From assembly GCA_965178125.1 (NCBI GenBank), contig OZ237738.1, forward strand, positions 62,001 to 126,000: DNA of 64,000 nucleotides, read 5' to 3'. The position numbers were made by a program, and so were the translations under genes. Shown piece after piece: positions 35 to 49,248 of the stretch; position 1 is the stretch's first letter, and each line of letters opens with the position of its first letter. The notes under the pieces are model-generated. The model searched no databases, was not told where the DNA came from, and saw nothing but the letters and a program-made list of their open reading frames with translations. This DNA is from Bilabrum cf. latius. Lineage: Eukaryota.

Positions 35-1291
35 TTACTTGCGTTTTGGCCTGGTCTTTCTCCTCGCGGCCCCCGTCGCGCTAGAGGCACTAGCTGCCCC
101 TCCACCTCGTCCTCGTCCTTGCCGAGTCTGCTCCCCGGTCGCACTCGAGCCTCGACCAGCCTTCCAACTATTCTGCGGCCCTCCATCCCTTGTGTCAAGT
201 TCCTCATTCCCGGCCCCTCGCCCCTCAAGCCGGAAGTGGTTGATCAGCTCCGCCATGCGGCCCGCATTCATCTCGAGCCCCTGCAGCAGGCGCTGGCGGG
301 GTCCACCTCCACCAGTGACCGGCGGGACACTGCTCGGATGCATCGGGTGCGAGGATTTGCTACTACTAGCACTGCGGCTGCTCGGCTGCTCCCCGCTCCC
401 GCTGTCTGCTCCACCTGCCCCTGCCCTGTCACCATTCGCTTCACCCAAACCTGTAGCCTCTTCTACTCCGCCAGCAGACCGCTCCTCCCCATCAGCTCTG
501 ACGTCCGCATCCCCCATTTCTTCCTCCTGTCCTGACCCTCCTTCCTCCTCGAGGTCAAGCCCGCCCAGACCACCGCTCTCGACACCCTCGAGGAGCATGT
601 CAGCCAGCTGGCTGTACACGGTCTCACCCCCGCCTGGAGGAGGAAGAGGACTCGATGGGGACCCGCCCCCGCTACCCCCTGCGCTGCGATCATCCATGCT
701 CCTGGCTCCTGCACTGAGAGGCGCGCTCGTCGGACTCCCCTGCCAGCCCCTGAGCAACCCGCTGCCGCCCGAGTCCCGTCGCACGCCCAGCGAAGTCTGG
801 CCGACTCCAAACATCGCCCGGCGAGAGGCGTGTTGTGCTGATCCAAACGCGCTAGAAACGAACACTCTGCCTGTATCATTACTGCTGCCGCTCATATCCC
901 GCCGCGGCCGCTTGCGGTGCGGCCCCAAAGCCTTTGGCAATGATTCTGCTTCGGTGCCTGGGCCTGCCCAGCCCGAGCTGCGGAGGGCAGTGTAGTCAGC
1001 CACAAGCTCCTAAATACCAGCAAGAGTTTTCTAGAGGTGGTCTGCGGCCGCCTCTCTGTTATTTCCCATGGCCACCAGCCTTTGCGCCTCCTCACGTTTC
1101 AAACGATGATAGTCCGTGAGAACATCCAGCAAGGACTAGGCTTGAGCAGCATTTCTAGGTAGGGCCGATGCATCTTTGGTCAGATCCAATGAGTCCACAA
1201 TCAGCTGCTAACAAGTTCTGTGAAACCCCTACGCATGCAAGAAAGAGTAGCACACCGAAAGCGCATGAAAGGACTGCGCACCTGCTTGCAT
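35..1291 (-). CDS. LisH-domain (NPAT N-terminus-like) protein with low-complexity tail, ~418 aa if TAG=Gln
   Basis: One frame from ATG 1291 to TAA 35-37 with 5 TAGs (1229, 1208, 1136, 1031, 1010). The N-terminus CYSFLHA*GFHRTC*QLIVDS...SLLDVLTDYHRLKREE resembles LisH/NPAT N-termini. Confidence 0.6.
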
Positions 1292-1511
1292 TCTCGCAAG
1301 CAACGCAACGGCCTGCTCTCGTTAGCTGGCAGCAGAATCAATAGGAAAAGGAAAGTTTATGTAATCTCGGACCTGAATGGACCTCACCCTTCGTGCACTT
1401 TGAGGCAAGCAATTCGGCCATCGTCACATGCGTCGAGCAACCAGCGTGGGGCAGCATTGCTTCATACAATAAGCTTGACCGGTAGCTTCGATGTCGCCAA
1501 TCATGAATTGA

Positions 1512-2635
1512 ATGGCTGCATTGCTTCGCCGCGCGATCAACCGCTGCCGTCGGCAGCTCCAAAGGTTTTTCGCAAATGTTCGCTCAGGTGAGGTGCTGCA
1601 TGCCAGGGTTAGTGCTGCGTGAGAGCTGTGATACGCCAATAAAAGGACTGCATTTGAGCATTTATCGCAGCACTTGACCCTCACTCGTTTCACGAGCTTG
1701 ACTTGCTTCGCTTCGATGGTGTGGACGACATCGAGCGATTCACAGTCAGCACCGATCGCTCTATGGGTGGAGCATCGTACGCTACGTTCAGTGTGCGAGC
1801 GGCGAGACGAAAGGGGCATGCAGATATTATACGAGGGGTATTTGAGGGCGTAATTTTGGGCCCTCGTATCCGCGGTCACGACCAGACAGATGTACTACGC
1901 CTCGGCGACGGAGGCAACGTTGAGCAGGTCCTGCTCGGCGAGCCGCAGAAGGACTCAGGAGCTCGAGCGTTTGCTTCAAGAGACCTTCGCTCGAACGATC
2001 CCCGCCGCCCATCCGCTGCACGCGAATCCCCCGGCCAGGGAGGGCGCCTGGTGCTGGAGCACGGCGAGTGGAGGAGCGGGGTGGGGGCCGGCAGCCTGGG
2101 CTGGGCTATGACCCGCACCAAGCCAGCAGACGTGTTCCCCAGGATGCCTTCCATGTCAGGTCTGCTGCTCACCGTGCGCGGGGACGGGCGCGCCTACCAG
2201 GTGGTCTGCAAAGGGGGCCAGCGCCAGTTTGGGCACGTCCCGGGTGTCGAGGCAGAGGCCACGTACGTCTGCCACCTGCAGCCCCCGGCGGGGAGGTGGG
2301 TCACCGTGGCAGCGCCCTTCCCGTCCTTCCTGCGGGTGTCTCGCGGGCACGTGTGGGGGGAACAGCGCTGGGAGGACGTGGACAGGTTTGACCTGGGGCG
2401 GGGGCTCAACCCGAACGAGCTCTCCGGACTGGGCTTCTTGCTGGCGGACGGGATGGACGGGCCCTTCTCGTTGGAGGTGCGGTCTGTGAAGGCGGTGAGG
2501 CACATCGAGAAGGTTACGGACGAGGAGGAGGAGGCACTCATACGCGGTGGCCTGCTCGCTGCGAGGAGCCACAAGAAGCAGCCAGGCAGGCAGGGCGAGG
2601 GGCGAGGGCTCCCTAGGGTCGAGGCCGGCGGCTGA
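1512..2635 (+). CDS. CIA30/NDUFAF1-family complex I assembly protein, 2 exons (1512-1587, 1671-2635)
   Basis: Arg-rich presequence MAALLRRAINRCRRQ and a frame-preserving GT..AG intron at 1588-1670. CIA30 motifs DRSMGGAS, LTVRGDGRAY, WVTVAAPFPSF, DGPFSLEVRSVKA. TGA stop. Confidence 0.8.
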
Positions 2636-2644
2636 AAGCATGCT
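1692..2644 (+). repeat. Direct repeat copy 1 (~953 bp) of the CIA30 exon-2 segment
   Basis: Colinear with 14586-15538 (offset 12894). About a dozen substitutions by eye. Confidence 0.95.
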
Positions 2645-3054
2645 TTCATGTGTCGGCACGATTTGCTCTCAAGCGACCCGCTGGTGGATCTCGCAGCAAC
2701 GAACAAGGTAGACATGGTTGAACTGCGCCAACCTTTTGCGATCTAGAATAGGTGAGAATGGTCGCAACTTGAAGGCCGCAATCAAGCTGTTGGCAACCGG
2801 ACCACGACAGGGAGGAGGAGCCAAGACACAGCCAGGGCAATGGCGCAAGCACACAACCAAACAGGAAGGTATTGGCAACCCAGCTTCCAGTTTGTGTGCG
2901 ACCACACCGAAATCCATTTGATAGTAGTAGCGTGTGATTTGGAATACCAAATCCAGATTAAGATTGGTCTCAACGGCGGGGGACCAACTCTGTGGGATAC
3001 TGTATCGTATTGGTATTAGGAATCACGATTACTAGGAATAGAGCACACGTCAAC

Positions 3055-6000
3055 ATGTATGGCGTGGTGTGCGTTCATTTGTGGCCTGTCGCGGCCGTGC
3101 TTGCCGTATGTGAGAGAGAGCTATCGGAATCCTTCAGCAGTACGATAGATCCTGCCTGCTGCGGGGCCTATCTGTGCTGTGCGACCTTACCATTAAATGT
3201 TCCTTTGTTCTATTACTATGCTTGGATCTAGAAGGACCCTAAAGGGAGGCTGTTTGGCTGGTAGTAGTCTCTGCCCAGTTGGGTCAACTTGGTTGGCATC
3301 ATGCGCCTCTCACCAGACGTTGGTCAAGTGGGAAACCTCGAGCATTTTCAACATGCAATCAATCTATGCGCAGTGATACTACCAGCAGAAGCTGGTGTGG
3401 CACAGCGACCAGGTTCCTTGGCATTTGACCAGCTCCGTACTCGGTCACAAGACATCAACCAGCTTAACCAGCTCGAGCACCCTATCGTGCAGCTCCAGGG
3501 CCATATTTTTGGTCCGAACATAAGTGCAATCTCAAGCTCTAGTGGCACTGTCACGGGCGCTGTCGAACCCGGCACGGATTTTGGGGAGTCCATGGTCGTT
3601 GTGCCAGACCTGTGTAGAGACGGCCAGGCAGACCTCCTCGTGATCGTGCCTGGCGTGTGGGAGGCGTACCAGAACCAATGGCGCAGCATGACTGGCCAGT
3701 CATGCGTGGGACATGTTGAGTACTGGAATTTCAACGGGAGTTTTTCGACAGCGTCGAATCACAAGGTGTTTGAGGTGACGCCCGACCAAAATTGCGGTGT
3801 GAGCGAGCCGACGTCATCCGTGTACGCCGACCTGACCAGGCTGGGTGGTCCCTACGGTGCCGCATACCTCGGGGTAGTCCCAGTGGACACGTCTTACTAC
3901 AAGCCATCGACGCGTATTTGTAGTGGCGCAAACACTGGTCAGGCAGCCTCCGCTGAGCCCCATCGAGAGCAAGGCGGTGACGACCTGTGGTGCGCGTTCG
4001 CGGCCGTCGTTTCCCGCGGAATGCACGACAGAGTGCCGCGGATATAGACACTCGGAGCTACGTGGGTATTTCCTCTGAACTGCACCGCCCACCTACCCCC
4101 TCCACCGGACGAAGCCGCCATTGATCCCATGTGCAAGGGGGTGTACAGCCAGACGAACGGTGCCGCCATCTGCGTGCGGGTGAACAATGCGAGCCTGCCG
4201 CAGCAGTTTGACGGTATCTCTGCGCTCCCACCAACCCCCGACGGTCGTCTGGCAATGGGGAAAATATTGCGTGGCATTGGTATCGCCACTCCTGCCATCA
4301 TAGCTGTCGATCCCAACGCTTACGCCTCAATCGACTACGTTCTCCACAGCCGGATCGGGATGATTGATGGCATGAAAGGGTGCAATAGCAGGCATTTCGG
4401 TTCATCGATCAGCACAATCAGGTACGGAAGTACGAGCAATCCGGATGACAAGAGTACCGCCGTTGTCGTTGGTCAGTACGATATTGGCCAGAGCGACTGC
4501 TCAAGCGGCGCTCTCTTCGTCATTCCTGACCCGTTCGATGCGTCCTCTAAATCGCGAGTCATCACGTATGGGCAGCCGGACAAATTCTTTTTGTGGGGTG
4601 CTGGCATTGGCTTCCGATCGATCAACATCGGTGACGTGGACTTGAACGGGGTCGATGACCTGGTTACTAGTACGATCATTGGGGGAGAGCTCTGGGTCTT
4701 GATGCTCTCTCCGGAGCTTGACGTCCCCGATGCCAAATCATTATTCACTGTCCTAGGAGGTGTTGATCAACTGCGCGTAGGAAGACCGCTTGCTGCTCCC
4801 TACAACCCCCTATTTCCTGCTGACACGACTGGCGTAGGCCTCTTTATGGCTGGTGAGCCTTCAATTCAGCTTACCACCGGAGCTGCGTCCGGCCAAATTT
4901 TCATTGTTCACGTAGGACAGCAAGCAGATGGAAATGTTGAAGTCGACTACGTGGCAGGTGGTAGCTCAAGTGATTTGGATGTTTTCATGGACGGGGTGAA
5001 CCCAGAGCTCGTTGCAGGCAAGCACCTCGCTGTCGTGCCTCCATCGCAGCCGTTTGATGCAACCGCAACGAACCCTGACATTGGGTACATCTGTACCGCA
5101 GTTGCAGGTCGATACGTTGCAGTATTAAACCGAACGTACAACCCATATGGCACTAGCAGGCTGTACCCTTTCAACGTAGAGTCGAGCGCTTCCCAGTCAA
5201 CTACTCTGCCTGGTGGACTGCAAGGTGCCTTCGACATGCTCACGTAGGCGGAGCAGCTTGCTCCCCTCGGCGCGGAGGAGCAAGCCGGTCCGACATCACT
5301 GTGCTCGATGCCACAGAACTCCATCCCGGATTGGGGTGCGCAGCCGCTCAACGGGCTTCAAGTATGCAACTCTGTGGCTAGTCTAGATGCAAGCGAAATC
5401 GGTAGCTTTGCGTCGGCTCCTGGGGCGGATGCCGTTTATCTTGCGGTGGGTCGACCGCTGGAGCCGTGCCCGTCCAGTAGGGCTCCGCACGGCTCCAAGG
5501 GTGCAAATGCCTTGGCATGCGGCATCGTCTCATTCGTCGTGCTGCATGGCGACTCCATGACGCTGCAGAAGGAATGGGCATGTCCAGACTGGCTGCAAGG
5601 CTCCAACTCCGCGTTTGGGGCTTCAGTTCGCTCTGTTGGTGTTGTGGGGTCTGATTCAACGGCATCATTGGTGGTCTCTTACTTTGGATTCAAAGGCCTG
5701 TTCACGAACCCTAGCCCTGGACTCGCTCTGATCCGAGATGCTTTCATTGCAGGTGCGAGTCCGTGCCCATTGGTATTGCCGGAACAGGTGAAAATGTCTA
5801 CCACATTGGCTGATGGCGCACCCTTTACCGTGTTCAAAATGTGGGTGATCGTCCCAGCGCAGCATAGCGTTGCGCAAGGAGACCCACAGCCAGGTATCGC
5901 GGTCATTGCAATCGATGATCTCCAGTACGATGTTGCAGCTGCTTGCAAGAATTGTGCATTCTTTCCCGCTAGGATCGGAGACAGTGCGAATTCCGACAGC

Positions 6001-9000
6001 AGCACTAATGCAACCTTTGATGATTGGCTCACCTCGATCGAGACGTGGGAGAGCAGTGAATGCTTGACAGCTGAGAGTGCCAGAGATTTTTCCTATAGCC
6101 CTTGTGGCGGTGGCGTGGCTCTAGGATTCTCCCGTTATCGTTGCACACAGGCAACGATTGAGTTCGGGGCAACTTGGATCGCAAAGTTTAATGACCTGCA
6201 GCGTCCTGTTGCGGGCGGGGTAAGCTGGAGTATTGTGCAGCCAGTAGCACACCAGTGCAACTCGTTTACGGCAGCAGGAGCTACCGGGTTCGGCTCAGTT
6301 GCGATTCCCGTTGGTGACATTGACGGAAACGGTGCGATCGATTTCGCCATTTCAATGACAACGGGGCCTGGCTACTACGGGTATGGCAGCATGTCTAACA
6401 TTCTCGGATACGTGTGGGTTGCAAGGCTGTACTGCAACGGAACCATGATCGCCATTGATCAGCTGGTGAACACCCCGCTCGTTGGTGAAGCATTTGATAA
6501 CGTGTTCTATTATGGGGACTCGATGGCTCCACTCGGTGATATTGATGCCAACGGACAGGTAGACTACGTCGTGGCTTCGAGAAACAAGAACGACTAGAGC
6601 CCTCCAATATACCTTGCGCTGGCCGATTCTAATGGCCGTGGGAGTCTGTTGTCTTCGTTCCAGGCCTTGCCAGGAGTGCAGGCCGCAGTGACAAACTCCA
6701 ACGGTGGCACCAACCGAAACGATGCAGGCACTGTGCCGAGACTCGAAACTGTCCAGACGTGCTTCAGCTCCAGCAGTCGCACCCAGCAGACGAATGCTTT
6801 CGCTGTTATCCTGTGCAACAACAATATCGTCATGTTTCGATGCTCCAGTGTCTAGACCTCTATTGCAGAGCCCGCATTTCGAGATGACGGGTCGATATCG
6901 CTTAGTGGGCTGCACGTGGCAGGTGGGATGCAAAAGATCCAGGTTGCTGGCCTTCCCAAACCTGTCAACACGATTGGAATCGCTCTGCATGCCTCCGTTG
7001 AGCACGTACTGAGGGATCACTCCTCCGCCGCAATTGGAATCGTGAGAGTGCTGCAGCATTCTCTCGATCCATCAACCGGGACTTACAATGCCGAACTGTT
7101 GGCCGATGTTGAGCAAGGGTTTGCCTCCAAGGCACCGCTGAAGTGGTGCTAGGGGACAAGCTGCGCGATTCAGAAGAGTACTGTGTCGTACGCCTCGCCA
7201 ACTGTGACGGGACTTGTCGCTGGTCTAGTCAACTAGACCGGCGGTGTCGTAACCATAATCGGCGAGGACGTGCAGGACAGCGAGATGAGCATCAACTACT
7301 CCTTCTACTCAAATGGTACTGGAGAAGTCCTGAAATGCTCTAGCCTGAGTTTTGAGTCGTCATCAAGACATCAATGTTAGTTGAGTCCAGGTGTCGGCAT
7401 CGATTGGCATCTGCAGGCGCATTGGCACCGAGACAAAGTGCCGCTGGGTGGGTGCCCTGATCCCGAGTCTTGCCTTGTATCATTTGCACCACCTGGGACG
7501 CTGCAAGTGCAGTGGAGGTATTCGTCGCACTCGCCAGACAATACATGGCACGACGGGAGCTCAATGCTAGACTACCCCTAGTCCAGCTGGAATACTAGCG
7601 ATCTGGCTGACTATAGCTTCGCAGGCGACGATTTGAGCTGCTTCAACACGTCGTTGCCTGTACATGAGACTGTTCGCTCCCTGTCTATCGGCTAGCTCAA
7701 TCTCATGGATCCACCAATGGGGTACGAAGATTGCACGTGCAAGTGGAGTATGGCAAGCTTGGCTGGCGCTCGTATCGAGTGCCTTAGTTGTCCTCTGTCG
7801 CGATTCGTCAGTGGCAACACAGTTAGCCTTTCCGACCTCTCTCACGGATTGCTGCGACTGCCAGCTTCGATTTCTCTTGGCTTCAAAGGTACGGACTGGT
7901 CACACTTTTCTAACTCTACGACTAGCTCTGCACTGTTCGTGCAGCCAGCTCCGCACGCAACACCTGAATACGTCAAAGCTTCTACAGTTGATCCGGCTGG
8001 GGATATGCTTGAATTGGATTTTGAGACAGATACAGGAGATTTCATTCGTCGCTCGGGATTCATTGCAAGAGTGGAATTGTTCTGCAAGAAGCACGGAAAG
8101 GAAGCCGTCAAGTAGTGCCAGGACGTCAAGTCGAGCTACGTAGAGAGTTTCTGTGGGAGCGAATTGAAGTACCCCGAGTGCTTGGACGCTCGCGTACGCG
8201 TTTCAAGCCTTACAGGTGGTGGCGATCTGCTGCAACCCGAAGCGCAGGAGCTTCTTGGCACCCATGCCAAGCGCGCTACCACACCGCAGATTTGCTCTGT
8301 ATCCACCACGGGGCTCAGTAGCGTGCTTGTGTCGCCATGGATAGTGTCGGTCACCCCGTTCAGCTACCATAAACCCCAATTTGCGGAGAACGGTACCTGT
8401 ATTCGCGGGCCTTCAAGCAAAACGTGGATTGCGCCATGCATGAATGGCTCGCAGTACTTTCACACAAGCTTGGGCTTCTGCGTGCCTTGCCCATCTGGAT
8501 GCCAGTGCCCGAACGGGGCGACACAGAAGGAGGTGTCTGCGCAGCGTGGCCACCGAGTCATTGTCCCTCCGTGTACACGGCCCGATGCGCCGATGCTCGT
8601 AGCTTGCGAAGCCTGTTAGGAACAGGAGAACTGCGAAGAGGAGCATGATCTACTCGGCGAAGGCAACGCGTGGAGTGACGACGACTGCAAGTGGCTGTCT
8701 TGCGAAACGAATTCCAGCTGCATCAGCGTGCAACAGGGCTGCAGCAAAAAATTCTCTGGCGTAGGCTGTGCCGAGTGCGCGAGGAATTTTTACCGGGAGT
8801 GGGGTAGAACACCCGAATATACAGAAAAGTGCAGGCGGTGCCCGCCGAAATCGAAAGTTTTTAGAAAGTTCTGGACACATCGGATGGTTTTGTGTGCGAT
8901 TTTCGGCTATGCTGCCATATATGTAGCTTTTACCGTGTGGGAAGGGAAAAGAACACTCGTGGAGGAAAACGTGATCGAGTTCATGCTGCACTCGACCCAG

Positions 9001-11829
9001 ATCCTGATTGCCTTGCTCTCATCTTCGAGCACTGAAGAGACCTCGTCGTCTGAATTTGATGATGTGCTTGCCATCATTCTGAACTATGCGGAGCTGACTT
9101 CATTCCATAAAGTCGCACCGCAGCTTCTGACGTGCCCAAGCTCAGAAAGGGAGACTCTCAATGATGGACTGCTGTCACAAGCCCGGGCGTCCGGACTGTA
9201 CGTCAGGCTGCTCATGGTACTGGTAATGCTATTGCTGCAATCCTGCATTGTGTGGATTGTGCCATGCGTTTGTCAGTACCCAAGGCAGCGCACTTCTGCC
9301 CATTCTGAGGCCAGGCAACGTCTTGGGCGGAACTCACCAATGATGTGCGGGTGCATCCCACAGTGCAGCTGTGCCCAACAATCGTTAGCTATGCAACATC
9401 CTGATGGTCGTGCGGTTGGAAGTGGTTCACACGGCTCTTCAAACAACCATTTGGCACGTGCACAGAAGTAGATTGCAACGCCTTGCTGCGATGGAAAGTG
9501 CATTGAGCTACCGCGGACATTCCTGCTGTGCTTGGATCGGTCTCTTGCCGCGCTGGTGCTCATGTTCAAGTTCATGTACATCCCTACCACAAAGCTTGCA
9601 ATATCGCTGCTACAAGAAGTAGATGTTAAAGTCGATGACAATGATATCCTAGGCCCCGCGGCGGAGAGCCCTCGAATGAAGGAGAGTCTGACTGTTTGGA
9701 CGAACGGATCAGCTGCTGAGTACGGCTTGCCACGAATGGAGAAGCCAGGCTATAAATCATATGGTCCTTCATCATTAACTACTGAAGGTTCGAGCTCAAG
9801 ACTTCAAGTGCTTGGCTATTGTCTTTTCTGTGTCGTCTTTCTGGGCCTCGCCTTGCAGTTGGTTGGTCAATCGTACTTGGGCAGTATTTTGGGAAGACGC
9901 CGAGCAAAGGTGAAGTCCAAGCGAGTCCAACGAACCACTGCTGTTGGTAACCAGGCAGCACATGCCGAGGATCAGGCGGTAGCACTGAGGGAGCCACTTC
10001 TCAGGTAGGATTCCTCGGCGTCTGAGAGCACAGCCTCGAGCCTTTCTGAGCCAGACTATGGTCGGCAGGTGTCTCCAGCATCACACCCGCCACCGCTTGG
10101 TACTCCATAGGATTGTGCTCAAACACTGGTACTCCCAGGCAGCGCATCAGATCTCCATCACTCGCATGGACATCAACCACGATTCCATGAGCTAAAGTCG
10201 GAGCTCTTCTCTGGTCTCGCAGACGACACCAAGTTCTGGTGGGTCCACGCAAGCACTGCAGGGACAGTCGCAATCATTGCCCTTTCAGTGACAAACATTG
10301 GGATTCTGGCAGTTCGCATGTGCTGGGTCATCGTGGTCCATTTACTTCTCACGGTCTTACAGTACTGCGGAAGGCCGCTCTCCACACCTGACATGCGAGC
10401 AGTTGGAATCGCAATTAGGTTGTTGTCGGTTGTCTCAACCGCTGGAATCCTAGGAATTACATCGCCAACGGACAAGGCTGCATTGGAAAATACGTTGGGG
10501 GAATAGAACAACAATAAGAAAGGATTGTTGCGACATTTGTAGCTCATCGTGATTGTGCCATTCATTTTACAGCTTGCCTTGGGGGTGTCTGTGCTCATCG
10601 CGGAGTGCCGCCGCCGGCTGCTTCACGACGTCGGGCACATAGCGGATTCCGGTATCCTTCCACTTCAAGACAGCCAGTGTCCGTGCTGCTGCCTGTGGTG
10701 CATCCGTTGTGGCCTTCTTGATCGAGTGATGTGCGCGAGGATCTGCGGTGGCGGACTCATCTACTGCAACTGGTTTGGACGCTATGGCTGCTGCTAGGAG
10801 TTCTGCGGGAAAGCCGCACTAGTATCCAAAGATGTGCACGCGTGCCTGGAAAGCCCACCCTCATGTAGGTCTACACTGTGCTGCGTGCGCACACCTGAGC
10901 TTGGCAGCATCCGCACCAGACGTATCACAGGCAGACACTTCATCGCCGGCCCAGCTGATACGGTAATTGGAGCTGGCTGCGGCTGCATGCCGTTCGCCCC
11001 AATCGAAGACTCTGTGATCGTTGTTGTGGGAGAATACCTCGAGGCCGAGGTCGCTCGACTCTCAGGTGAGACTCCCGAAGAAGCCGCAAGGCGTTTTCTG
11101 GCTGTCCATGAGGTTGGGCATGGGCTACACGAAGAAACGTTTCGAGAAATCGTCCGCTAGTTTAGCCTGTCCGGATCATCAAGCCCGCACGAGTCTCTCA
11201 CCAGACCACAGAGAAGCGCTCAAGCCACTACAGGTCTTACCGCGCAGCGGCTCAGAGCATCTTATCGTGCACCGCGTTAGAACAGTGGAGGCAAGGTCGG
11301 CAAACCACGTGGTGGAGCTGCATATGTCCCTCCGCAAATCCAACATGAGAGGGTGCTGCAGTCAAGCATAGCAAGTGCAATGCAACACAAACCCTCGCTT
11401 CCTCCCACAAGTGGATTGCGCATGTCGCATCGTCAAAGCTCCCACTCGCCAATTGCTGTGGGTGGCACTACCGGTTTGCTTCTGCCTCTGCCTAATGCGC
11501 CTGGTGCGCGCAATATCCACCGAAACCGCAGGGCAGTTCCGGGTCTGCTACCCACCGTTGCTGGACAAGGAAGGAGCGTGAGCCAGGGTGCAGTTGCCGA
11601 ACGCGATCTACGCTCAGGTAGAGCTAGTGTTGGGGGGCTGCTGCAACGTGTGCTTGCTCGGGCTATCTCGGGACAGCAAATGCAAAACGTTGATGAAACC
11701 GAGTCGGGCGATGGTGGCAGTGCGGGACTTGAGCTGCACCCGCGCCGTGTCTCAAACGATGTCAGCTCCGCAGGAGTACTTGATGAGCTGCAGTCGCTGC
11801 GAATGAGTGCGGATGATGAGCTCGGATGA
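3055..11829 (+). CDS. Giant intronless surface/receptor-like protein (~2,924 aa): signal peptide, FG-GAP repeats, IPT/TIG-like, CUB-like, Cys-rich region, multi-pass TM region, cytoplasmic tail
   Basis: All frame +1 ORF pieces (3289, 4129, 5308, 6649, 6916, 7381, 7705, 8164, 8728, 9532, 10288, 10549, 10834, 11353) are separated only by TAG (~22). No in-frame TAA/TGA until TGA 11827-11829. Motifs IGDVDLNGVDDLV, VGDIDGNGAIDFA, LGDIDANGQVDYV, MLELDFETD..RSGFIA, CVPCPSGCQCP. Hydrophobic segments after ~8880. Confidence 0.8.
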
Positions 11830-20464: not shown

Positions 20465-20502
<38 letters not shown>

Positions 20503-37460: not shown

Positions 37461-40400
37461 TCACACTCCGTCCTGCAAGAGCAGGCTTTCGACATCGCGG
37501 CGGATCTGCTGACCGAAGCGGAAGCAGTTGACCGCTGGAAGCCCCGATACCTTGACAATTGCGTCGAAATCCGGCACTGGGTCTGGTGCAAATCGAGGCA
37601 TCTCATTCAGGCAGATGGCTTGCCCTAGGATCTTGCGTCCAACTTTGACGTACAGGATGCGGCGGCCAAGCAGACAATGCTCTCGGTGCAGGCCGACGTT
37701 CCTGGGCCAGCCGCCGTGCACAGCCGCCACTTCGGGGTAGAACCACAACCGCTGCCCGATGACCCAGGTCGCGCCATTCTTGTCGCGGCATACTGCGAGT
37801 ACGGTCAGCACGATTGGCGGCCCACCGTCTCCATCTCCGACAACAACAGCGTCTCGCATGGACCTCCACAGCTCGCCCCGGAAGGCCGCCCGCCCGAAGC
37901 CGCCCCGCAGCTCGGCCAGCTCCTTGCTCAGCATGCCCGAAGCCACTGCAACGTTGAGACCACTACCTCCGTGCCCATCCACGCGCATATCTCGCAGGCA
38001 CAGGCCTGGGTAGAAGGACACTGGCGGCTGCGGCAGTGGCAGCAAGCGGTACTGCCGGCAGGACTGGCAAGTGTCAGACGGGCACATCCATTGGTGTTTG
38101 CTGCACGCCGGCAGGTCGATCCGGTTGTCTGGCTTGAAGGGAGGAGTGGGAAACTCCTGGCCCAGGAAACTGACCGACATCCACCTGGGCACCCCATGGC
38201 TCCGTGCTGCGGGAGAGGGAGAGGCAGAGGCAGCCTGGTGGAATGGCGCCGCCGGCTGCATCGATCCACCGACTCTCGAGAAATCCAGACCGTGAGCCTC
38301 GCCCTCCACTCGCCAATGCTGCTACCTGAGACGTGCATCTGATCTCTCTTTCTTGTACTGCTCGTAGAAGGACGACGCACCCTCGTCCCGCGATGGGTCT
38401 AGTGCTGCATGACCTGCGCCACCCTCGCCGGTCTGCAGCAGCTGGCCAGAGCGGATGCCCCTTGCACTACGCTCCGCGCGAGCCGCAAGCGCGCCTAGCC
38501 CGGCTGTCTTGGCATGCAGCTGCTCCAGCTCTAGTCCGGGCGTGAACACGGCGACATCCATTAGCGAAGACTCCGGCTTCTCTGCCCCCTCTTTGCTTGA
38601 GCCATGGCCAGCCGCCGCACCCTGGTGCACAGCCGGGAGACCCACGCTAGAGCCTGCTGACATGCGTGACAAGCTTGCAACGGTGTCTACCAGACGAGAA
38701 GTGGCGCTCACATAGCCACGGTTGCGTTCTCCTGGCCCCTAGTGCCCACAGGGCGGGTCCCTCGGCTCGTCGGGCATTAGCCGTGGCAGTCGCTTGGGCA
38801 TCATTAGGCTCACTGCCGAATCCGAACCGATGCTGGGTTTTTGCATGGCATAGCTCATCCTCGCCTGTGTCTGACGCAATGAAGCTCTCTGCACGAACCC
38901 CAACGACCGCAGGATCGTCTCTAGTCTATCGGCAGCATCGCCGCACGGCTGCAGCATCCTGTGCACCTTGGCCCGAAGGCCCGAAGGCATGTCGAGATGG
39001 TCGGGTACTGCGCCTGTCCTCACCGCCGTGACCACCGCAGCCCAGTGCTTCTCGAAGAATGCGTTGTAGTGCATCAGCATCTGAATCACCTCCTGGGGGG
39101 GAGACCTGTGCACGAGCTCGCCCCCGCCCTTGGCCAGCCTCAGGGCCAGAGTGGCCACCAGCGAGCCCTCGTCTTGCACCAGGCTAAAGTCGCCGTCTAG
39201 GACTGCCACGGTGCCGCCAGATCGGCGCTATGGTCCAACACCTGCAAGGATTGCAGTGGGTTTGCTCTGCTTGGCCTAGTCCTTGCACATGGTCATCACG
39301 TCGGTGGTGATCCTGGTGAGCGCCTGGTTGTACTGGACCGTCGAGCTGGTGGCCGCTTGATCCTCCAGGGAGTCTACTGTGTCAGCAGCGTGACTATTCC
39401 GCCGCTTGTCTCTCCTTAAGAGTGCCTACTCTGCCACTTTCCTGCTCTCGTCATCCAGCGCCCCCAGCATGGCGGTGCCGTACGGGTCCAGCCGAGCCTC
39501 AACTCTCCTGGTTGACGAAGATGCATTGCCTGCTGAAATCGGCGCGATGCTTCCTTGGCCTGCCTCTCCACGCCGAGCTGTTTCTCCAACAATATTCACA
39601 TCCCCGTTAGATATCGCCAGTGCGCCGTTCACCACCCGCTGGTAGTCTTTCCGGTCGTGCTTCCATGCGGCTGGGGAGCCCTTTTTACCCATGTGCCTCA
39701 CCCGTCGACATGTCTGGCCGGCCAGCTTGCCGCTCTCCATCTCGGCCAGCTGAAGATAGCTCTTCATTGCCTTGCTGCGCTGGCGGAGGGTTTGCAGCCG
39801 ATCCCGCTTGGATGCGCCAATCTCCAGAGCGTCAGGCTCGCACGCTTCAAGGGCCACCTGGCCCACCCCTGGCACGTCTACCACGGCCTCGGTCTCTTCG
39901 ATCGGATCCTTGGTACGCCCTGAATCTCGTTTATACATGTCGGCTCCGGCTACCCATGGCTGCGGTTGGGGCAGTGTCCCGTCACGTGTGAGCTCGAGGA
40001 CCGGGTGCAGGAAGTGTCCCTCCTCCGGCCGGATCCGGGGCCTCTGCCCGTTGAGCCGGCCCCCCACTCTGGACTCGCCCACCAGGAACCGGATGAGTCC
40101 CTGGTCTCGGCTCGTGTCGTCAAACAGCCAGCGCACCAGCTCGTGCCAGTTGGACCGGTCCGTCCTGACCTCGTGGTGCTTCTTCTGCAGCGCGCTGGCC
40201 GTTTTAGCTGGGATCCCGCACTGCCGGAGCACGCGGCGGAAGGCGGTAGGATGCAGCAGTCCAGTGTTGGCGGGCTCTGCAGCTGCCAGTGTGACCGCCA
40301 CATCTACCAGCGCCACCTCGATTTCGTCCTCCTTGGACAGCAGGTCACCCCGGACCAGCTGCTTGCTCGCTCCCGGCCAAGTGGAGCAGTCCTCCTGTTT

Positions 40401-42171
40401 GCCTGTTGCATGAAACATGCCGCCCCCTGCCTTGGCAATCGCCTCCCGTTTCAATGCCTTTGCCGCTTCCCCAGGACTCTGCAGCCCGAGCTCTGTCCTG
40501 ATCTTGCCCACGGGAATGCTGGCGTCCAGCCACCTCCACACCTCTCCGTTCCTCCTCCTCGCCCGCTTGGCTTTCGCTCTGCCTAGAAACCCGCGGCACG
40601 CTGCCTAAATGCGGACTATCTTGGCACGATACAGGTGGATTACACTGCTTGCAAGTCGCTTGTGCGTCTATTTTCTCCACCACCTTTGCAGCTCCGTCGC
40701 AGTCTTTGCTTGGCTCTCCTTCTTCTTGAGCTCCTCGAGGACTGCATCCTTGTGCAATCGCCCCAGCCACTGGCGGACGGCCTTCTGCATGACCCGGGCT
40801 GCCATCTTGCGGCGGGCGTCTAGCAGCCGCAACTTGCGGTACCTGTGCCTGGCCAACCAGCCCAGGATCACGTTCGACACCATGATGCGGGAGCGCGCCT
40901 CTGCCAGCCCAACGATCCTAGCGCGGAGCCTCTGCCGCATCGTAACGAACGTCTACATCAGCCACCGCCTGCGGATCCACCTCTGGATGCGCATGGCCGC
41001 TCGCTTCACTTTGATTTCGTACTCTGCTCTCCTCCTCCACCTGGCGTACCTCCAGTTGCGCTGCACCACGCGCACGGCCAGCTGCCTGGCCAGCCGGAGG
41101 GCACGCATCTCCTCGATGACCCGCTTGCCGCGGTACACCAGCTGCAGCCGGCGCACGGCCCTGTCTCTCTCCGCTGCATCCTGCTCCCTCCTGTACCTGA
41201 GGTATGCCCTCCTCACGCCCAGCATCCGGAAAGTGGCCTGCGCCCTCGTGATCCCGCGCAGCACCTTGCCACGTAGCATGCCCGTCTCCACCATGCCGCG
41301 GGTCACCCACTGGCCGATGCGGTCGAAGACGTCCTGCTCCAGCTCCAAGTCTGCCAGGCTGGGGTCGTCGTATCCCTCCGCTCTCGCCCTCTGCAGCCCG
41401 GGCTGGGCCTGGTACGGGTCACCACCCCCCGCCTTCGGGCGCAGTGGGTGCTTGCTGCTCGTATACATGCCCACCACGACCCCCTCGACGTGCAGTGGGT
41501 CTTCGATTTCATCGGGAGGCTTACCATACTTCGCGATGTAGTGCATGGAGCAGAGCCCGTCCTGGTTAATGGGGTCAACCTTGGCGGGCTTCCCGGCGTG
41601 CTCTTCGGCGCAAGCGTCGCAGTGCCAGCCGCACCGGAACAGCAGTTTCCCTGTGACCGGGCTTCGGATGCATCGATTGTTGCATAGAAGCAGCATCCCG
41701 CTAGCAGCTTTATGCTTCCAGCCACAAATCGCCCTTGAGCGAGGCACCGGTCGCGGTTGCTCCAACACATGCTCAGCGATGTCCTGCTGCACGATTCGTT
41801 CCAGACGGCGGCGATCTATTGACTGGTGATAGTCCCACTCCCCAGCTTTTCGTTTTATCTATGAAATGGCATGAAGGTCCTTGATTTCCATCTATTGCTC
41901 GGATAACAGCTCTCTGCGGACGGCTTGAGGTCTAGGAACGTTTGAGTTGTGCCAGTGGTGCAGCCGGATGGTACGCGGCTTCATGCTACCCACCCAGTGG
42001 CTCTTACCCTAGCGTTTTCTTGTCATCCTCTGCAGTTTTTAATTTGGGAGGCCCCACTTCTTCGGCTTTGCTACCTCTCGTTCGACGCGATCGCTTGGAG
42101 GTCGAAGTTGTCCCCACAGATGCTACAGAACTCGATGGGGATACAGGACCGGAATAGTCTGAAACACTCAT
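37461..42171 (-). CDS. Large IQ-motif (calmodulin-binding) protein with Cys-rich segments, ~1,544 aa, 2 exons (42171-42008, 41931-37461)
   Basis: Same-frame pieces joined by ~10 TAGs. IQ-like motifs RIQRWIRR, VVQRNWR, LQRWWRK and RI*AACRGFLGR. GT..AG intron at 41932-42007. TGA stop. Confidence 0.75.
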
Positions 42172-42392: not shown

Positions 42393-43481
42393 ATGAGGCG
42401 CCCAGCCCTAACTGCGCTGGCTATCATAGTATCGGTATCCTGTTGCAGCAGTCAGAAAAGATTAGAGTCGGTCGCATCTGCCCGAGCAGGATTACTTGGT
42501 CCAGGATAGATACACCACGAGCTGCTGCTCCAAGGCTCGGCCCAAGAGATGGACTCTGTGGAAGCCCGGAGCGCACATCAGATTATTCCAGGGCTAAACC
42601 AAATTTTGGAGCTGTGCATGAAGCTGCTGCTGCCGCCGGTGTTCGATCCATTCCTAGAGAAGTTTCAGGATCACCTTGGCCACGTTCTTGGCGAGGAATT
42701 TGCCAGAGACGTGGCGAACACCGTGCCGCAGGACGCCGCCCGGAAACTGGAATCTACGCTATCCACGAATCTGGCTGCAATGCTTCCAGATGGAGTCGTG
42801 GCAGCATTGTAGGATGATGCCACGGAGCGAATTGCCCGCATTGTTGACGAGGATGCAAGTCCGCATCTCGAGGCAGACATCGTGCAGATGTCCACAAGCG
42901 TGATTGCGGACAGGACGGCTGCACTTCTCAGCAAGCGCTTGCCCAAAACTCTAGGCGTGTCTATCGAACGAGCTTTGGGCCCACCCCTTACAGAATCCCT
43001 GACGAAATCGCTCACAGCATCGCTGGCAGGGACCCTGGGGGCCTCCATGCGCAGCCAGCTGCGAGGCTCGAGCTCAGGCTCGCCGCAGGGCCTCGCGGGT
43101 GCCAATGGAGAGGGCGTGCTGCGGCTTGGTGCATTCACGCAGGAGTGCAGCATGTGTATCAACCGCACCGAGCCAGTGTCCCCGCGGTCCCCAGGGGGAG
43201 GAGGAGGCATCACTGCCGGAAGGAGCGATGGGACGGCGGCACTGGGGATGGCGTGCGCAGCTTGCGCCCGGTAGGAGCAGCAGGTGCTCGGGTGGCTGTA
43301 CGGCAGGTACTTTGGGGCGTACTTTGCCCAGTACTACGCGCACTACTACTCTGAATCACTGCAGGCAGCTGACCTGCGACAGCATCCGCGCGAGCAGCAG
43401 CAGCAGGAGGAGGCGGAGAGGACGGGGCCGGGCTCCCAGAGGCCAATGACTGCGGCGGGGACCGTGACTGACTTCGGGTGA
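42393..43481 (+). CDS. Secreted hypothetical protein with helical repeats, CxxC pairs and a Tyr-rich C-terminal motif, ~362 aa
   Basis: Signal-like MRRPALTALAIIVSVSCCS and YGRYFGAYFAQYYAHYYSE. TAGs 42507, 42810, 43272. TGA stop. Confidence 0.65.
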
Positions 43482-43629: not shown

Positions 43630-46600
43630 TTACATGGTGCTGCCCTCTCCCGTGCTCCAGATGGACGTGAGCCACACCTGCTTGCGCACGCCCGCCGCCC
43701 CCCCTCTCATCTTGAGCTCCCTGCGCTGCTCCTCGAGACTCTTCCCGTCCATCACCTCGGGCCGCCTCGGCAGGTCGAACCGCTGGTGCACGAGCTCCTG
43801 GAAGAAAGAACTCATCTCGCCGGGCTGCATGACCTGGAGCAGCAGCGCGCGCGCGTGCCTCCTCAGGTCCCTCGTCTTGGGCGTCAGCCCCGGGCCCATG
43901 ACCTCGCTCATCTGGCCCCGCAGCAGGAAATCGGCGGCCTCGTGGAAGGACGATGTGCCCGCGAGCAGCTTCTCCACGTTGCGACGCAGGGCCATCCTCT
44001 GCACTGGGTCCCGCAGGGGCAGCTACGGCCTGCCCACGGGCGAGGAACGCAGCATCGTCTGCATCACCATCCCGTCTCCAAAGGGGTGCTCCAGCTGGAC
44101 GTACCAGCCCACAGGCACCACAAGGGTCTCGCCGGGCCGCACGGTGCAGCACGCGAACTAGGCGTACCTGTGGCGCGGGTATCGCCACATGTTGGGGGCG
44201 CGAATGTCCACCTGGGCATACCTGTCCATGGGATGCGCCACGGGGAAAGGGTACATGCGGCCCCAATGGTGCGGCGGTGCCATGATCGCGTGCACGGATC
44301 CCCTTATGCAGGTGAACAGGTGCGAGGACTCGTCGTACTCGATGGGGTGGATCACACCCCTCTGCCCGATGATGAGAGACTGCGAGACCACGCCGCCGAG
44401 GAAGAGCCTTCTCTCGAGCTGCTTGATGAAGGACCAGTCGCACCCGAACAGTTCGTGCAGGCTCTGCTTGCCCATTCCCGTGAAGAGAGTTTGTCTCAGA
44501 CAAAGCTTGCGCTCACCTTCGCCAACCACTGGCTGCCAATCCATCCCCTGCATCGCTGGGGACTCTCGTAGCTTGAGAGACACTTCACCAGCCATGCGGA
44601 TCATCTCGTTGGCAACCACCAGCACGTGACCGGTGGCCTTCTGCCTGGCATCGCTTGCATCCCCCGACCCTGACTCCGATTTGACTTTGTCTCTGCCAGC
44701 ACGTGCATCATACTTGCCCCTCTCTGTTGCCTCTGCTGACTTGGAGCCAGCTCCTGTGGAGGCAGACATCGAAGCGGCCAGCAGCTGCCCGGGCGTCGGC
44801 CCAGCGGATGCTTTCTTTGCCAGTATCTTCTCCTTTTCCTTCTCCTTCTTGGCAGCCTTGGAGCGGCGCCCACGACGGCCTCGTCGCCCTCCAGACGCCA
44901 CCATCTTGGTCGTCTGGGATGGAGCCGTATCCGGCTTGCCTTGGGTGATGGCGCGCCGCTAGGCGGAAGTTCCAATTCCTTGTCCTCCTTTCGTCGCCTG
45001 GAATGCGTCTGTCTCGCTCTCGAGCGTCATGGGTCCGTCGGAAAAGGGTTCCTGCGCTGGCAGCGAGGCCGGCATGGGGCAGTAGTGCACCGACTGCTCC
45101 GCTCGTTCCTTCTGCTCGTCCTGCCAGCGCCTCCAGGTCGGCGCATCGGGGATGCTGCCTGCTTGGGCCAGCGCGGCAGTCGCTCGGCGGTGATCCACTG
45201 CATGCTCCATATCGTCGTTACGATCCCCTGCAGGCTGGCTGCCGGACGAAGTGTCGAACGACTCGGGCGGGATTTCTTGAAACGGGGCTCTAGCGGGAGT
45301 CTCGCGCTTGGTGGCGGATGCGAGCTTTACAAAAAACTCCGCGATGGGCATGTCACAGGGCACCGTACCCGCATCGTGCACATAGCCCACCATGTTGGCA
45401 GCGTGCTGCACGAACACCCGCGGGGAGCCTTCGTACACCCGGAACAGAGACCGGATCCCAGCTGCCTCCGTCAGAGCCGCGGGGCTGGACCAGCGCTCTA
45501 CGAGGGGCTGCATGAAGTTCGTGTCTGTGAGGACGGCAGGGCGGTTATGGAAGATCCATTCGTATGACTGGGTGTCGTAGGCGGACAGCCGTGGCACAGC
45601 CCTCTCGCAGAGTCTGCCGTGCACCGTGTCCCAGTCCATGCCCCGCTCCTCGGTGGGCGCGATGCCGTAGTACTTGCGCCTGGTCAGGGTCTCCTGCAAG
45701 TCGCGGTCCTTCGCAGCATCTGTAGCTCCTTCACCGGCTGCCTTCTCGCCCCTTCCAGGCTCCTTCGACTTCCCAGCGGCATCACCTGCAGACTTTGCTT
45801 CTGCGGCTTTGCTTGTAGAGTCTGCACACACGTCCCCCTAATCAGGCTTATCGGCTCGGCTTGCCTTGCTTTCAGTGCCAGCATTATCAGGGCTCTTGTA
45901 CACTGCGTCCGCGTCTCCTAATGCGGGCAGACGACCCCTGGAGCACTCTGCTTCGAGCAGCATGGATGTGGGCCGGAACACGGGCGCAGACAATCGGTAC
46001 CCGTTGACCTATCGAGTCACCACCATGCCTTGGTCCTTGCCCGTCCACAGGAACATGTCGCTCTCGGGGCCATCGGTGGGCCGAATCAGGCTGCAGTCCT
46101 CGGCCACCCCGCAGGCAAGCCCACGCCTGACCAGGTCCTTGGCGAGAGGAGACCGGCGACGGGCCTCTTGGATGCAGATGAATTGCTCCATGTCCTACCG
46201 GTGCTGCCGCAGCACCGTCGGCACATCCTCTCCGAACCGATGCAGCCGCTGCTCCGCCCAGGCCTCGTCGAGCTAGCCCGGATCTGCAGCAAACGAGAAG
46301 GCGTACCAGGGCAAGTGCAGGGTCTCCGTGGGCAAGAACCCGCTCTGCAGCTTGAGCCTTGAGAGGATCCTAGTCATGCAGTTGTGATGATGCATGAAGA
46401 GCTCTGCTGCCAGTGCCCGTCGAAACTTGCGCTGCAGGTCCGGTGAGATTCCCAGCAAGGAGCCAGGGAGTGGCGAGGTCGGGTCAATCTGAATAGAAGC
46501 CGCACTTACTGCCTGCTTCAAGGACGCGGCCTGTGCTTTGGTCGATTTCACGAGAGCAGTGGAATGAGATGGCTCGGAGGCCCCAGCAGCAGACGGCACG

Positions 46601-49248
46601 GATGCAGCGGCTGACTCGGCGCGGGATGCGCTGGCAGCCAGACCCGACTTGCCTGGACCTGCTCCTGCTCCCGCCTTGTCCCCTTTCGCACTAACCCCCT
46701 CATCGGATGCATCGATTTCACCGCCTTCATCGCTCACCTCTTTCGAACCACCAGCAGCCGCACCCTGGTGCGACTCCGCTGTGTCCTCGGTGGTCAGGAT
46801 CGTGTAGTCGGTGGGCCGGCTGGCCCGTGCCACCAGCCCACGGAAGAGAGAGAGGAAGATGGACCGCACGGGGTACACGGCCTCCAGAGAGTCCAACGGG
46901 TCGTTCCCTTGCTCGCGTTCTTTCTCTCCGCTGCTTGGATCACCCCGAGACGAAACACCAGCGGAATCATGCTGGGGCGCAATGGACGCGGGCCGTGCAT
47001 GGCTGCCGGTCAATCGATCTTGTGCACTTGCAGCAACCCCAGCCTTCTAGCCCCGCAGCGCCTTTGCCCGCATGATAAACAATCGCGTGGCCTTCTAGAT
47101 TCCAGCCGCGTGTTCAACTGCCCTGGGCTCTCCGATCCACGCCATGGCCCGGAAGAGCTCCAGCTGCCAAGGGGCTGCAGGGCCAGTGGGACTGTCTGAG
47201 TCAGCCCCAGAGACTGCGTCAGCAGTGGACGTGTGGCCGCCTTCCTTGTCCGTTGCTGCCTCCACGCTCCTGCTCGCAACCCGCAGCAGATCCGGGAGTG
47301 CCTCAGCATACGCTCGGTGCACCAGCATCGGTCCGAACTCGGCGTCGTACCACGATACCAGCGCGATGGCATGCCTGGCCATGCGAGAGGGAATCGCGTT
47401 GCACCACACCTCCGCAGCCACCCGCAGCCCAACTGGAACCCTGTTCGTCTGCATGAGTCCGGCGTAGACCGCGTCTAGAGCACGCACCAACGGAGAATCT
47501 CGTTTGAGATGGCCAGGCTTCACGTCGATCGCAGTGATGGGCAGCTGCAGCAGCCTCTCTGCAGATACCTCAAGGCAATCGGACTGCCACACAGGCTCAG
47601 GGAGGTTCAGCTCCAGGGCCACGTGGGTCGTGCTGCCACTCGCAGCTCCTCCACCTCCACCGCTAGCCCCTGCCGCGCCCAGCAAGCTCCGCCCCATCGC
47701 TTTGGCGGCGCCTGCCAGGGCCGCGGCTCCTAACTGACTCTTTCCCTTTGACTTCCCCTTGCTCTTGCCCGCTGCAGCAAACTCCTTGCTGAACTGCGCT
47801 GCCGCCGCCAGGTTCTCCTCCCGCTCGATCTCCCGAGAGTCACGCAGCCTCTCTGGGTCCTGGGCGGGGTTCCGAGGGAGCGGAGGCGGGGCTTGCTGCG
47901 GCCCGTAGGCGACCGGAAACCGCCGGAAACCTTCCTACTGCGGGATGCATTTCGGGCATGCGCGCGGCCCTGCCGATGCCCCCTGTCCCTGGCCCTATCC
48001 CTGGCCCGGGGCAGGCATGGTCCTGAGGTAGTGGTCCAGACACATGGCAAAAGTTAGGGCCCGGCCCGCCTCGCAAACCTCTTCGATCGCGGCTGGCAGC
48101 TGAGGGCTCTCTGCTTCCTCTCTGAGCTGGGCCAGAGGGGGCAGGGTGAGGGCAACTGAGCTAGCTGCTGGTGCTGGTGCTGGTGCTGGGGCTGGTGCTG
48201 ATGCTGATTCACCTGGCTGGTGGCTAGACGTGGACGTGGCTGCATCGTCCATGCCAGCCGGGTCCTTCCCTGCCGCTGCAACGTGCGCGATGGTTTGCTG
48301 CGCGACCCTCACTGCGTCCAAGTTCCTCTAGCTCGCTCTGTCGGTCGCGGCTGCCATTGCCTACCGAGCTGCCTCCAGCACTGCCGCCCGGCTGCCCTGG
48401 GAGGCCTCCACGAGCCGCTGCAGGGCCAGTCGGACACCAATGCGCTGGCGAGCACCCTTAGCCCGGGAGGAGTGCCATGCGGCCATGCGCTGCAATAGCC
48501 GAGCCGCGGCACGGGCCAGCGGGTCTGGCTGCACCGGGAGGAACCGCCAACGCAGCACCTCGTTGATCTGAGTGAGCCTCTCGGTGATTTCGTCCGTGCC
48601 AGTCTCTCCCGACGCTATTGATTCAAGAAGTTGGTCCATCCCAGTTATGAGCATCGTAATGTTCTTCACGCACGCCACAAACTGCGGGGTCTGGCACCAT
48701 GGACGAATGCCGTAGTCTATCCTCGCTTCACCGACTGGAATACCAGAGTTGTGCCCGTCTATGCTACCGAACTCCGCCGCACACAGGTGAGGTTTATACA
48801 ATGTTTTAGCGATGCCGCAGCACACCGCTTTCTTGGAGAGCGATAGCAGCTTGCAGGTTTGCTCTGGCACTCCAGGTAGTTTGCACCATTCCATAACAGT
48901 GTCCCGGGCGAGAAGCGAATGTTCAAGCAATCCACTCCAAAGCTCAGTTTCAGCCCAGTAACGGGTAGTCTCTAACTCCATTGCTCCAAATGTTGGCTCG
49001 ATGACCAGCTCGCCTTGTCGTCCAACACTATTGGGCTGCTCAAGGCCTCTTGATAGTAGCAGCCCTGCGATCTGCTCCCCGACCACATGGCAATCGTCAG
49101 AAGAAGTTTCGCATCCAATAACACACTTTGCTACAGTCTGAGCTATGCAAGCTTGCGCAGCGGCGCTGAAGGATGGCTTCCCTCTTTGCTAGTGCAGCGC
49201 ATCGACAATGGCAGTTAGCCCGCTTCTCAAGCCAGATCCAGCTGCCAT
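43630..49248 (-). CDS. Large intronless protein (~1,872 aa) with a C-terminal FIH/HIF1AN-like JmjC domain with degenerate metal ligands
   Basis: One frame from ATG 49248 to TAA 43630 with ~14 TAGs. RPAVLTDTNF, LIIGQRGVIHPIEYDE, MYPFPVAHPMDRYAQVD, TVRPGETLVVPVGWY, QRMALRRNVEKLL. Confidence 0.8.

Follow-up and report, generated by a model that had tools for sequence, protein, structure and literature searches.

Does TAA still terminate translation in a nuclear genome in which TAG has turned into a sense codon? This question is raised by a 64-kb stretch of DNA labeled Bilabrum cf. latius (assembly GCA_965178125.1, contig OZ237738.1, positions 62,001 to 126,000), the whole of which we refer to as the window. 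Judged from its gene content, the window is nuclear DNA from the compact, intron-poor genome of a flagellated eukaryote with an aerobic-type mitochondrion. It contains about 62% G+C, and the G+C share at the third codon position (GC3) of its genes ranges from 0.58 to 0.87. In nuclear genomes UAA and UAG have mostly been reassigned jointly and the reassignment of UAG alone is rarer; on this point the preliminary description of the window agrees with excerpts of two publications (PMC5304391, PMC11687900). Our analysis makes it very likely that in the window TAG encodes glutamine and that TAA and TGA are stops, so that UAA and UAG are uncoupled in a nuclear, cytosolic code corresponding to NCBI table 15.

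For codon counting we curated 20 coding sequences (17,982 codons), among them three gene models (Aha1_N, IFT81, AP-beta) that were corrected for introns. Here, we found 96 TAG, no TAA and no TGA in frame 0. In the other two frames of the same genes TAA occurred 45 and 64 times and TGA 299 and 277 times. In-frame TAG codons are present in 17 of the 20 genes, including those for an RF1-type release factor, topoisomerase II, AP-beta, IFT81 and a short-chain dehydrogenase/reductase (SDR), and they make up 0.53% of all codons and 11% of the glutamine codons. As for the gene ends, TAA was found at four of them, at positions 35-37 and 43630-43632 on the minus strand and at 17606-17608 and 28665-28667 on the plus strand. 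The remaining 16 genes are closed by TGA and none by TAG. Each of the four TAA stops terminates a long frame that is open once TAG counts as sense. When TAG was translated, the longest open reading frames (ORFs) grew from 1311, 837 and 776 to 2956, 1874 and 1526 codons; when TAA was taken as sense, ORF lengths remained almost unchanged. Translation with NCBI table 15 reproduces the reading of TAG as glutamine. These counts confirm for the window the absence of in-frame TAA and the presence of TAA-ended genes, both of which had been claimed in the preliminary description. Its coordinates for the four TAA ends were exact, and its statement that TGA closes the other genes holds as well.

Since the frames had been delimited by TAA and TGA, the lack of in-frame TAA is partly circular and the status of TAA was therefore tested by independent means. 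If TAA shared the meaning of TAG, 14.1-23.2 in-frame TAA codons would be expected from the share of A versus G at the third base of other codon pairs (TTR 0.128, CAR 0.178, GAR 0.195; R is A or G), and the probability of observing none would be 7e-7 to 8e-11. We also considered the TGA-delimited frames that span 80 or more codons and have an internal TAA; among these 170 frames a single one was coding-like on both sides of this triplet. With 55 codons and a score of 0.16 it is a weak candidate, and it sits in the divergent promoter of the queuosine-salvage and AP-beta genes. Thus, no gene in the window appears to be split by TAA. Inside the TAA-ended genes the coding score was +0.09 to +0.33 bits per codon. 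Past the TAA at 17606 and the TAA at 43630, stretches of 35 and 139 codons score as non-coding (−0.34 and −0.11 bits per codon), the latter stretch running antisense through the neighboring gene, and a third stretch of 11 codons beyond a TAA stop scored −0.22. The Cupin_8 protein, which ends at a TAA, has the same last residue as a 98% identical fragment of a relative from another assembly (P0292). In 9,993 bases of non-coding DNA, with both strands counted, TAA occurs 137 times versus none in frame in the genes. TGA is not a sense codon either: it is missing in frame, it provides 16 of the 20 stops, and in the SDR gene it stands where the homologous C-terminus is reached. Taken together, these data indicate that the uncoupling of UAA and UAG is well supported for the window.

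To what amino acid TAG is translated can be seen from the alignments with close relatives (84-99% identical), in which glutamine stands opposite TAG at four of the five aligned sites. TAG codon 99 of AP-beta, for which 60 of the 120 best matches were aligned, corresponds to glutamine in the database proteins P0001 (84% identical), P0002 and P0003, and TAG codons 20, 992 and 1742 of the Cupin_8 protein correspond to glutamine in the fragments of its relatives (four fragments, 91-99% identical). The only close-relative site with another residue is Cupin_8 codon 1018, which is serine in P0293 (98% identical), a difference that one base change from TAG to TCG or the reverse would explain. The proteins of the relatives had evidently been predicted with the standard code, and the points at which their ORFs break off are informative. 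They end directly before a window CAG (AP-beta 606, Cupin_8 268), before a window TAG (Cupin_8 718) or before a window CAA (Cupin_8 1073). Glutamine codons and TAG together constitute 4.9% of the codons, and by our own arithmetic the chance that all four breaks fall on such sites is about 5e-6. The relatives probably share the code, and C/T transitions would convert CAG into TAG and vice versa. Since standard-code ORFs of relatives with 84-91% protein identity break opposite glutamine or TAG of the window, the code change probably predates the split from them. Among the best solved homologues, which are distant, glutamine occupies 6 of 11 TAG columns. The residues are S, Q, Q and A in Escherichia coli RF1, Q and E in human topoisomerase II alpha, Q in the Pseudomonas-type hydroxybutyrate dehydrogenase, Q, Q and R in Chlamydomonas IFT81, and C in human AP4B1. 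On the basis of these alignments, the amino acid inserted at TAG is identified as glutamine.

Next to its role as a sense codon, TAG might also serve as a stop. The preliminary description had named a large number of TAG-ended genes as an observation that would speak against uncoupling; within the window none of the 20 genes ends at TAG. Sequence beyond the last TAG scores as coding (0.07 to 0.59) in 16 of 17 genes with this codon. In AP-beta, TAG occupies codons 807 and 835 of an 847-codon ORF model, so that two TAG codons lie at most 41 codons from the TGA stop, and they are located in or just before C-terminal sequence common to the homologues.

To what extent the TAG codons persist in messenger RNA was followed in assembled sequencing runs. 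A DNA contig of run X1 covering positions 17378-33593 was identical to the window without a single difference. The runs X5, X6 and X7 come from two further studies. Their contigs show canonical spliced joints, which are absent from X1. These joints lie at 21885/22081 and 34669/34767 (GT..AG, plus strand) and at 24475/24662 and 25106/25204 (CT..AC, which corresponds to introns on the minus strand). The respective introns (21887-22081, 24476-24661, 25107-25203 and 34670-34766) are the only four in the roughly 20-kb stretch that was compared with the runs (15500-35400); they are 97-195 nt long and have GT..AG ends. The joints corrected three gene models, giving Aha1_N two exons on the plus strand, IFT81 three exons and AP-beta an intron in its 5′ leader. 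The contigs taken as transcripts match the window with no differences over RF1 (18141-19479), UbiA (19492-21425), IFT81, a 1092-codon gene (25445-28640) and topoisomerase II. Thus, the in-frame TAG codons are retained in processed mRNA. Since the spliced contigs are identical to the DNA over the TAG sites, editing and introns are ruled out as explanations for these codons. The RF1 contig ends 47 nt past the TGA stop. The X5 contig over the 1092-codon gene ends at 28640, which is 25 nt short of its TAA, and is silent on the 3′ end of this gene.

As to the molecular basis of this code, UAG would be decoded by a glutamine tRNA with the anticodon CUA, which is unable to pair with UAA. Such a tRNA-Gln(CUA) could have been derived from tRNA-Gln(CUG) by one anticodon change. 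On the termination side, a single eRF1 would have become unable or less able to recognize a stop codon with G as its third base and would have kept UAA and UGA. This combination, which was also put forward in the preliminary description, is the standard prediction of the literature for codes of this kind. Pánek et al. (excerpts of PMC5304391) argue that no anticodon other than CUA recognizes UAG while leaving UAA unread, that a single mutation of tRNA-Gln(CUG) is enough to produce it, and that UAG recognition by eRF1 has to be lost or reduced. The same source names the regions GTS, NIKS and YxCxxxF of the eRF1 N-domain, in which changes at the residues for the third stop-codon base would be expected.

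Several observations weigh against the code or the mechanism proposed here. Neither ARAGORN nor Rfam detected a tRNA gene within the 64-kb window and hence no tRNA(CUA), and the eRF1 gene is also absent from the window. The sample comprises 20 genes and would be compatible with occasional TAA sense codons or TAG stops in other parts of the genome. For none of the four TAA-ended genes is the C-terminus fixed by a distant homologue, the sole C-terminal match being the 98% identical fragment mentioned above, and support for the gene with its TAA at 35-37 is weak, with no homologue and a low coding score. In an alignment of 150 distant RF1 homologues the TAG columns were variable (P, E, R and Q each lead somewhere) and glutamine was not singled out. 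The runs X5-X7 are labeled merely "RNA?", X5 is also designated "probably DNA", and none of the listed runs with the window sequence is on record as RNA; we have taken them as RNA-derived because their contigs carry spliced joints. Finally, the break opposite CAA at Cupin_8 1073 requires one mutational step if the relative carries TAA and two steps if it carries TAG, and the site is compatible with TAA encoding glutamine in that relative. A two-step path via CAG appears plausible given the divergence of the fragment concerned; we suspect that P0291 (about 92% identical) and P0293 (98%) come from one contig, since for both fragments the longest contig is given as 3304 bp.

How do other explanations compare with the reading of TAG alone as glutamine? 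Least credible of all is a standard code in which RNA editing or tiny introns eliminate the TAG codons, or in which the genes are pseudogenes or products of assembly errors; we found nothing in its favor. Despite the 96 TAG codons, frames extend intact over as many as 2924 codons, and spliced contigs from three runs and two studies as well as the independent DNA contig (17378-33593) agree at the TAG sites. It is also most improbable that TAG encodes another amino acid such as Glu, Lys, Leu, Ser or Tyr. Such an assignment could draw on the E, R, S, A or C found at some TAG columns of distant homologues and on the serine of one close relative, but glutamine is the sole enriched residue against a background of about 5%, and the ORFs of the relatives break exclusively at glutamine or TAG. 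A code of the ciliate, Hexamita or Amoeboaphelidium type, in which UAA and UAG both mean glutamine (NCBI table 6) and the true stops are TGA triplets following TAA appears very unlikely, too. In this case TAA would be rare because of the G+C richness of the genes, and their GC3 values indeed disfavor A-ending codons; the break opposite CAA would fit, and in-frame TGA follows the TAA at 28665-28667 within 4 codons. However, the A share of other NNA/NNG pairs is 0.107-0.43, and by our own arithmetic even the lowest of these values predicts about 11 in-frame TAA codons, whereas none was seen. The non-coding character of the sequence past 17606 and 43630 and the abundance of TAA outside the genes argue in the same direction. 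We ascribe a similarly small probability to a context-dependent TAG, which would be sense within genes and a stop near some 3′ ends, as is the case for the three stops of Condylostoma. With 20 genes sampled, TAG-ended genes may exist elsewhere, and in the 2924-codon gene the 182 codons past the last TAG have a score of −0.01. In contrast, TAG is needed as stop in none of the genes, the SDR protein reaches its homologous C-terminus at TGA, the late TAG codons of AP-beta adjoin shared C-terminal sequence, and the RF1 contig terminates shortly behind TGA.

A different kind of alternative leaves the code as it is and dispenses with the suppressor tRNA. Here, UAG would be read by the near-cognate tRNA-Gln(CUG), whose G would pair with the U at the first base of the codon, in the presence of an eRF1 that recognizes UAG poorly. 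This scenario, which we regard as unlikely, likewise affects UAG only. CAG accounts for 82% of the CAR codons, so tRNA-Gln(CUG) should be abundant. Read-through by near-cognate tRNA-Gln is described in an excerpt of PMC13192750, and an analogy is offered by the modified tRNA-Trp(CCA) of Blastocrithidia, which has a 4-bp anticodon stem and reads UGA (PMC13092985, also in excerpt). On the other hand, TAG provides 11% of the glutamine codons, with 22 TAG in a single gene; such a usage requires efficient decoding and favors a cognate tRNA, and in an excerpt of PMC5304391 CUA is argued to be the sole anticodon for UAG without UAA.

For the reading of UAG alone as glutamine, the code itself is already known, and the window organism is a further instance of it and not one of the hosts described so far in the sources cited here. 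According to excerpts of these sources, UAG-only nuclear reassignments published since 2017 include the rhizarian exLh (Leu) and Iotanema spirale (Gln) (PMC5304391), as well as Scotinosphaera (Ser), Protocruzia tuzeti and several phyllopharyngean lineages (Gln, Leu) (PMC11687900). Closest in its decoding is I. spirale, in which UAG is glutamine, UAA (the main stop) and UGA terminate, and the same tRNA-Gln(CUA) and altered eRF1 are predicted (excerpt of PMC5304391). Unlike the window organism, which is GC-rich, has an aerobic-type mitochondrion and finds its best matches outside the metamonads, I. spirale is an anaerobic fornicate known from its transcriptome only. In P. tuzeti and two phyllopharyngean ciliate lineages UAG, but not UAA, has likewise become glutamine (excerpt of PMC11687900); the window differs in being a locus with multiple genes that spans 64 kb or more and in having no ciliate among its named best matches. 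The exLh rhizarian and Scotinosphaera have also kept UAA as a stop (excerpts of PMC5304391 and PMC11687900), but there the amino acid is leucine or serine instead of glutamine. Amoeboaphelidium protococcarum resembles the window organism in being a non-ciliate protist with a stop-to-glutamine change. In this species TAG and TAA are both reported to encode glutamine (excerpts of PMC6299283 and PMC5304391), whereas in the window TAA is never sense. In-frame TAA, the feature of the UAR-to-glutamine code of table 6, was found at none of the 17,982 codons. An identity of the organism with the aphelid Amoeboaphelidium, which came into consideration through the glutamine code and the association with algae of that genus, is unlikely, since no opisthokont appears among the named top matches. 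NCBI table 15 ("Blepharisma nuclei; some phages") gives the same reading as proposed here and is silent on lineage and mechanism.

For the placement of the organism, AP-beta and topoisomerase II were searched and the best 120 matches of each were considered. The best named matches were oomycetes and other Diaphoretickes with about 36-47% identity, and the named matches included no ciliate, metamonad or opisthokont. Judged by these matches, the organism is unlikely to belong to the ciliates, fornicates or opisthokonts. In a FastTree phylogeny of 35 topoisomerase II sequences the query formed a long branch next to a red alga, a placement that we do not take as resolved. When metagenomes of the Joint Genome Institute (JGI) were scanned with the Cupin_8 protein, 590 pattern matches and no relatives were obtained, and the organism seems to be absent from this collection. 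We found no literature report that we could tie to this lineage (supplementary files lay outside the search). We give about even chances to the interpretation that the window represents an undescribed, deep-branching lineage of aerobic flagellated protists, which reached its code independently of ciliates and fornicates and in which this code is common to at least two divergent members.

The sequence of the stretch 15500-35400 recurs identically in the runs X1 and X5-X7, which belong to three studies and bear three different organism labels, and the spliced contigs stem from runs that are labeled differently from the DNA run. Among the runs X8-X16, in which the window sequence has a small share, are such labeled as algae or protist metagenome. 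The organism may live with, or contaminate, other cultured organisms.

UAA and UAG nearly always shift jointly, and the exceptions are natural test cases for what couples them. Iotanema and exLh are known from transcriptomes, and their authors state that confirmation of tRNA(CUA) awaits genome sequencing (excerpt of PMC5304391). A further, probably independent lineage with assembled genomic DNA and transcripts would allow this check. If our interpretation is correct, this could be the first non-ciliate system in which the predicted tRNA-Gln(CUA) and the changes in eRF1, or their absence, can be read from the genome, since an assembly exists; if they were lacking, tRNA-Gln(CUG) would be indicated as a near-cognate decoder of UAG. 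For practical purposes, annotation under the standard code would fragment most genes, as has happened to the database entries of the relatives, and table 15 is needed.

The curated genes with recognizable domains code for eukaryotic proteins. An RF1-type release factor (18188-19432, plus strand, 6 TAG, TGA stop; Pfam PCRF and RF-1, 1.5e-61 and 5.2e-42) carries the GGQ motif and has PQT where the aligned bacterial RF1s carry PAT or PVT. It is organellar and therefore irrelevant to cytosolic termination. Given this member of the RF1 family, both UAA and UAG may have remained stops in the organelle, even though UAG is glutamine in the cytosol. The transcript contigs suggest short 3′ untranslated regions, of about 47 nt for RF1. 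The adjacent prenyltransferase of the UbiA family (19562-21529, minus strand, 3 TAG, TGA stop; Pfam UbiA 6.6e-53) is COX10-like in our own reading, and its true start probably lies downstream of 21425. This UbiA/COX10-like enzyme, the CIA30-domain proteins described below and the organellar RF1 are the reason why an aerobic-type mitochondrion was deduced.

The Aha1_N-domain gene (21654-22493, plus strand, 2 TAG, TGA stop; Pfam Aha1_N 4.6e-13) consists of the exons 21654-21886 and 22082-22493. An ORF on the opposite strand (21693-22553, minus) was rejected, since the spliced contigs place the real gene on the plus strand. IFT81 (22874-25280, minus strand, 5 TAG, TGA stop; PDB match to IFT81, 1.4e-12) has the exons 25280-25204, 25106-24662 and 24475-22874. 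The convergent transcripts of Aha1_N and IFT81 overlap by about 10-25 nt at 22702-22727. The 1092-codon ORF (25389-28667, plus strand, 4 TAG, TAA stop at 28665-28667) belongs to no known family. It is followed by DNA topoisomerase II (28775-33001, minus strand, 3 TAG, TGA stop), which was identified by Pfam, PDB and transcript contigs, by a queuosine-salvage protein without TAG (33197-34330, minus strand, TGA stop; Pfam Q_salvage 4.8e-72) and by AP-beta, an AP-4-type beta adaptin (34772-37243, plus strand, 3 TAG, TGA stop), whose 5′ leader contains the intron 34670-34766.

In the distal part of the window an ORF of 1521 codons with no known family (37461-42026, minus strand, 11 TAG, TGA stop) and one of 362 codons (42393-43481, plus strand, 3 TAG, TGA stop) precede the 1872-codon Cupin_8-domain protein (43630-49248, minus strand, 14 TAG, TAA stop at 43630-43632; Pfam Cupin_8 7.6e-13). 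They are followed by an ORF of 1007 codons (49522-52545, minus strand, 3 TAG, TGA stop), an RRM-domain protein of low complexity (52935-57176, plus strand, 4 TAG, TGA stop), the SDR gene and an EPL1-domain protein (60024-63869, plus strand, 3 TAG, TGA stop). The SDR (57374-58441, minus strand, 2 TAG, TGA stop) is 3-hydroxybutyrate-dehydrogenase-like and was identified by Pfam and by PDB entry 1wmb (1.9e-84), to which it aligns up to residue 259 of 260.

The proximal part starts with a low-confidence ORF of 418 codons (35-1291, minus strand, 5 TAG, TAA stop at 35-37), which matches no Pfam family and has a coding score of 0.09. The cysteine-rich 2924-codon ORF (3055-11829, plus strand, 22 TAG, TGA stop) shows a weak, sub-threshold match to FG-GAP-like repeats. 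On either side of it lies one copy of a direct duplication (1692-2644 and 14586-15538) of 953 bp with 98.7% identity, the copies being 12.9 kb apart. Each copy contains a CIA30-domain gene of 290 codons without TAG, one at 1763-2635 (plus strand, TGA stop; Pfam CIA30 4.3e-13) and the other at 14657-15529 (plus strand, TGA stop; Pfam CIA30). Two ORFs of this region were dropped from the gene set, namely 1876-2715 (minus strand), which overlaps a CIA30 gene, and the TAA-terminated 13643-14536 (plus strand), which has no Pfam match. A B-lectin repeat protein (15929-17608, plus strand, 3 TAG, TAA stop at 17606-17608; Pfam B_lectin 7.1e-9) follows downstream. Over 16000-17500 of this gene the summed contig depth was 10-100x that of the neighbors in all four runs, with many variants, skips and loose ends, and the gene is a member of a high-copy family.

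No family was found when the 64-kb window was searched with Rfam. The stretches 11830-14586 (2.7 kb) and 58442-60023 (1.6 kb) contain no convincing coding frame (best scores 0.11-0.18), have a G+C content of 55-56% and are unusually long gaps for a compact locus.

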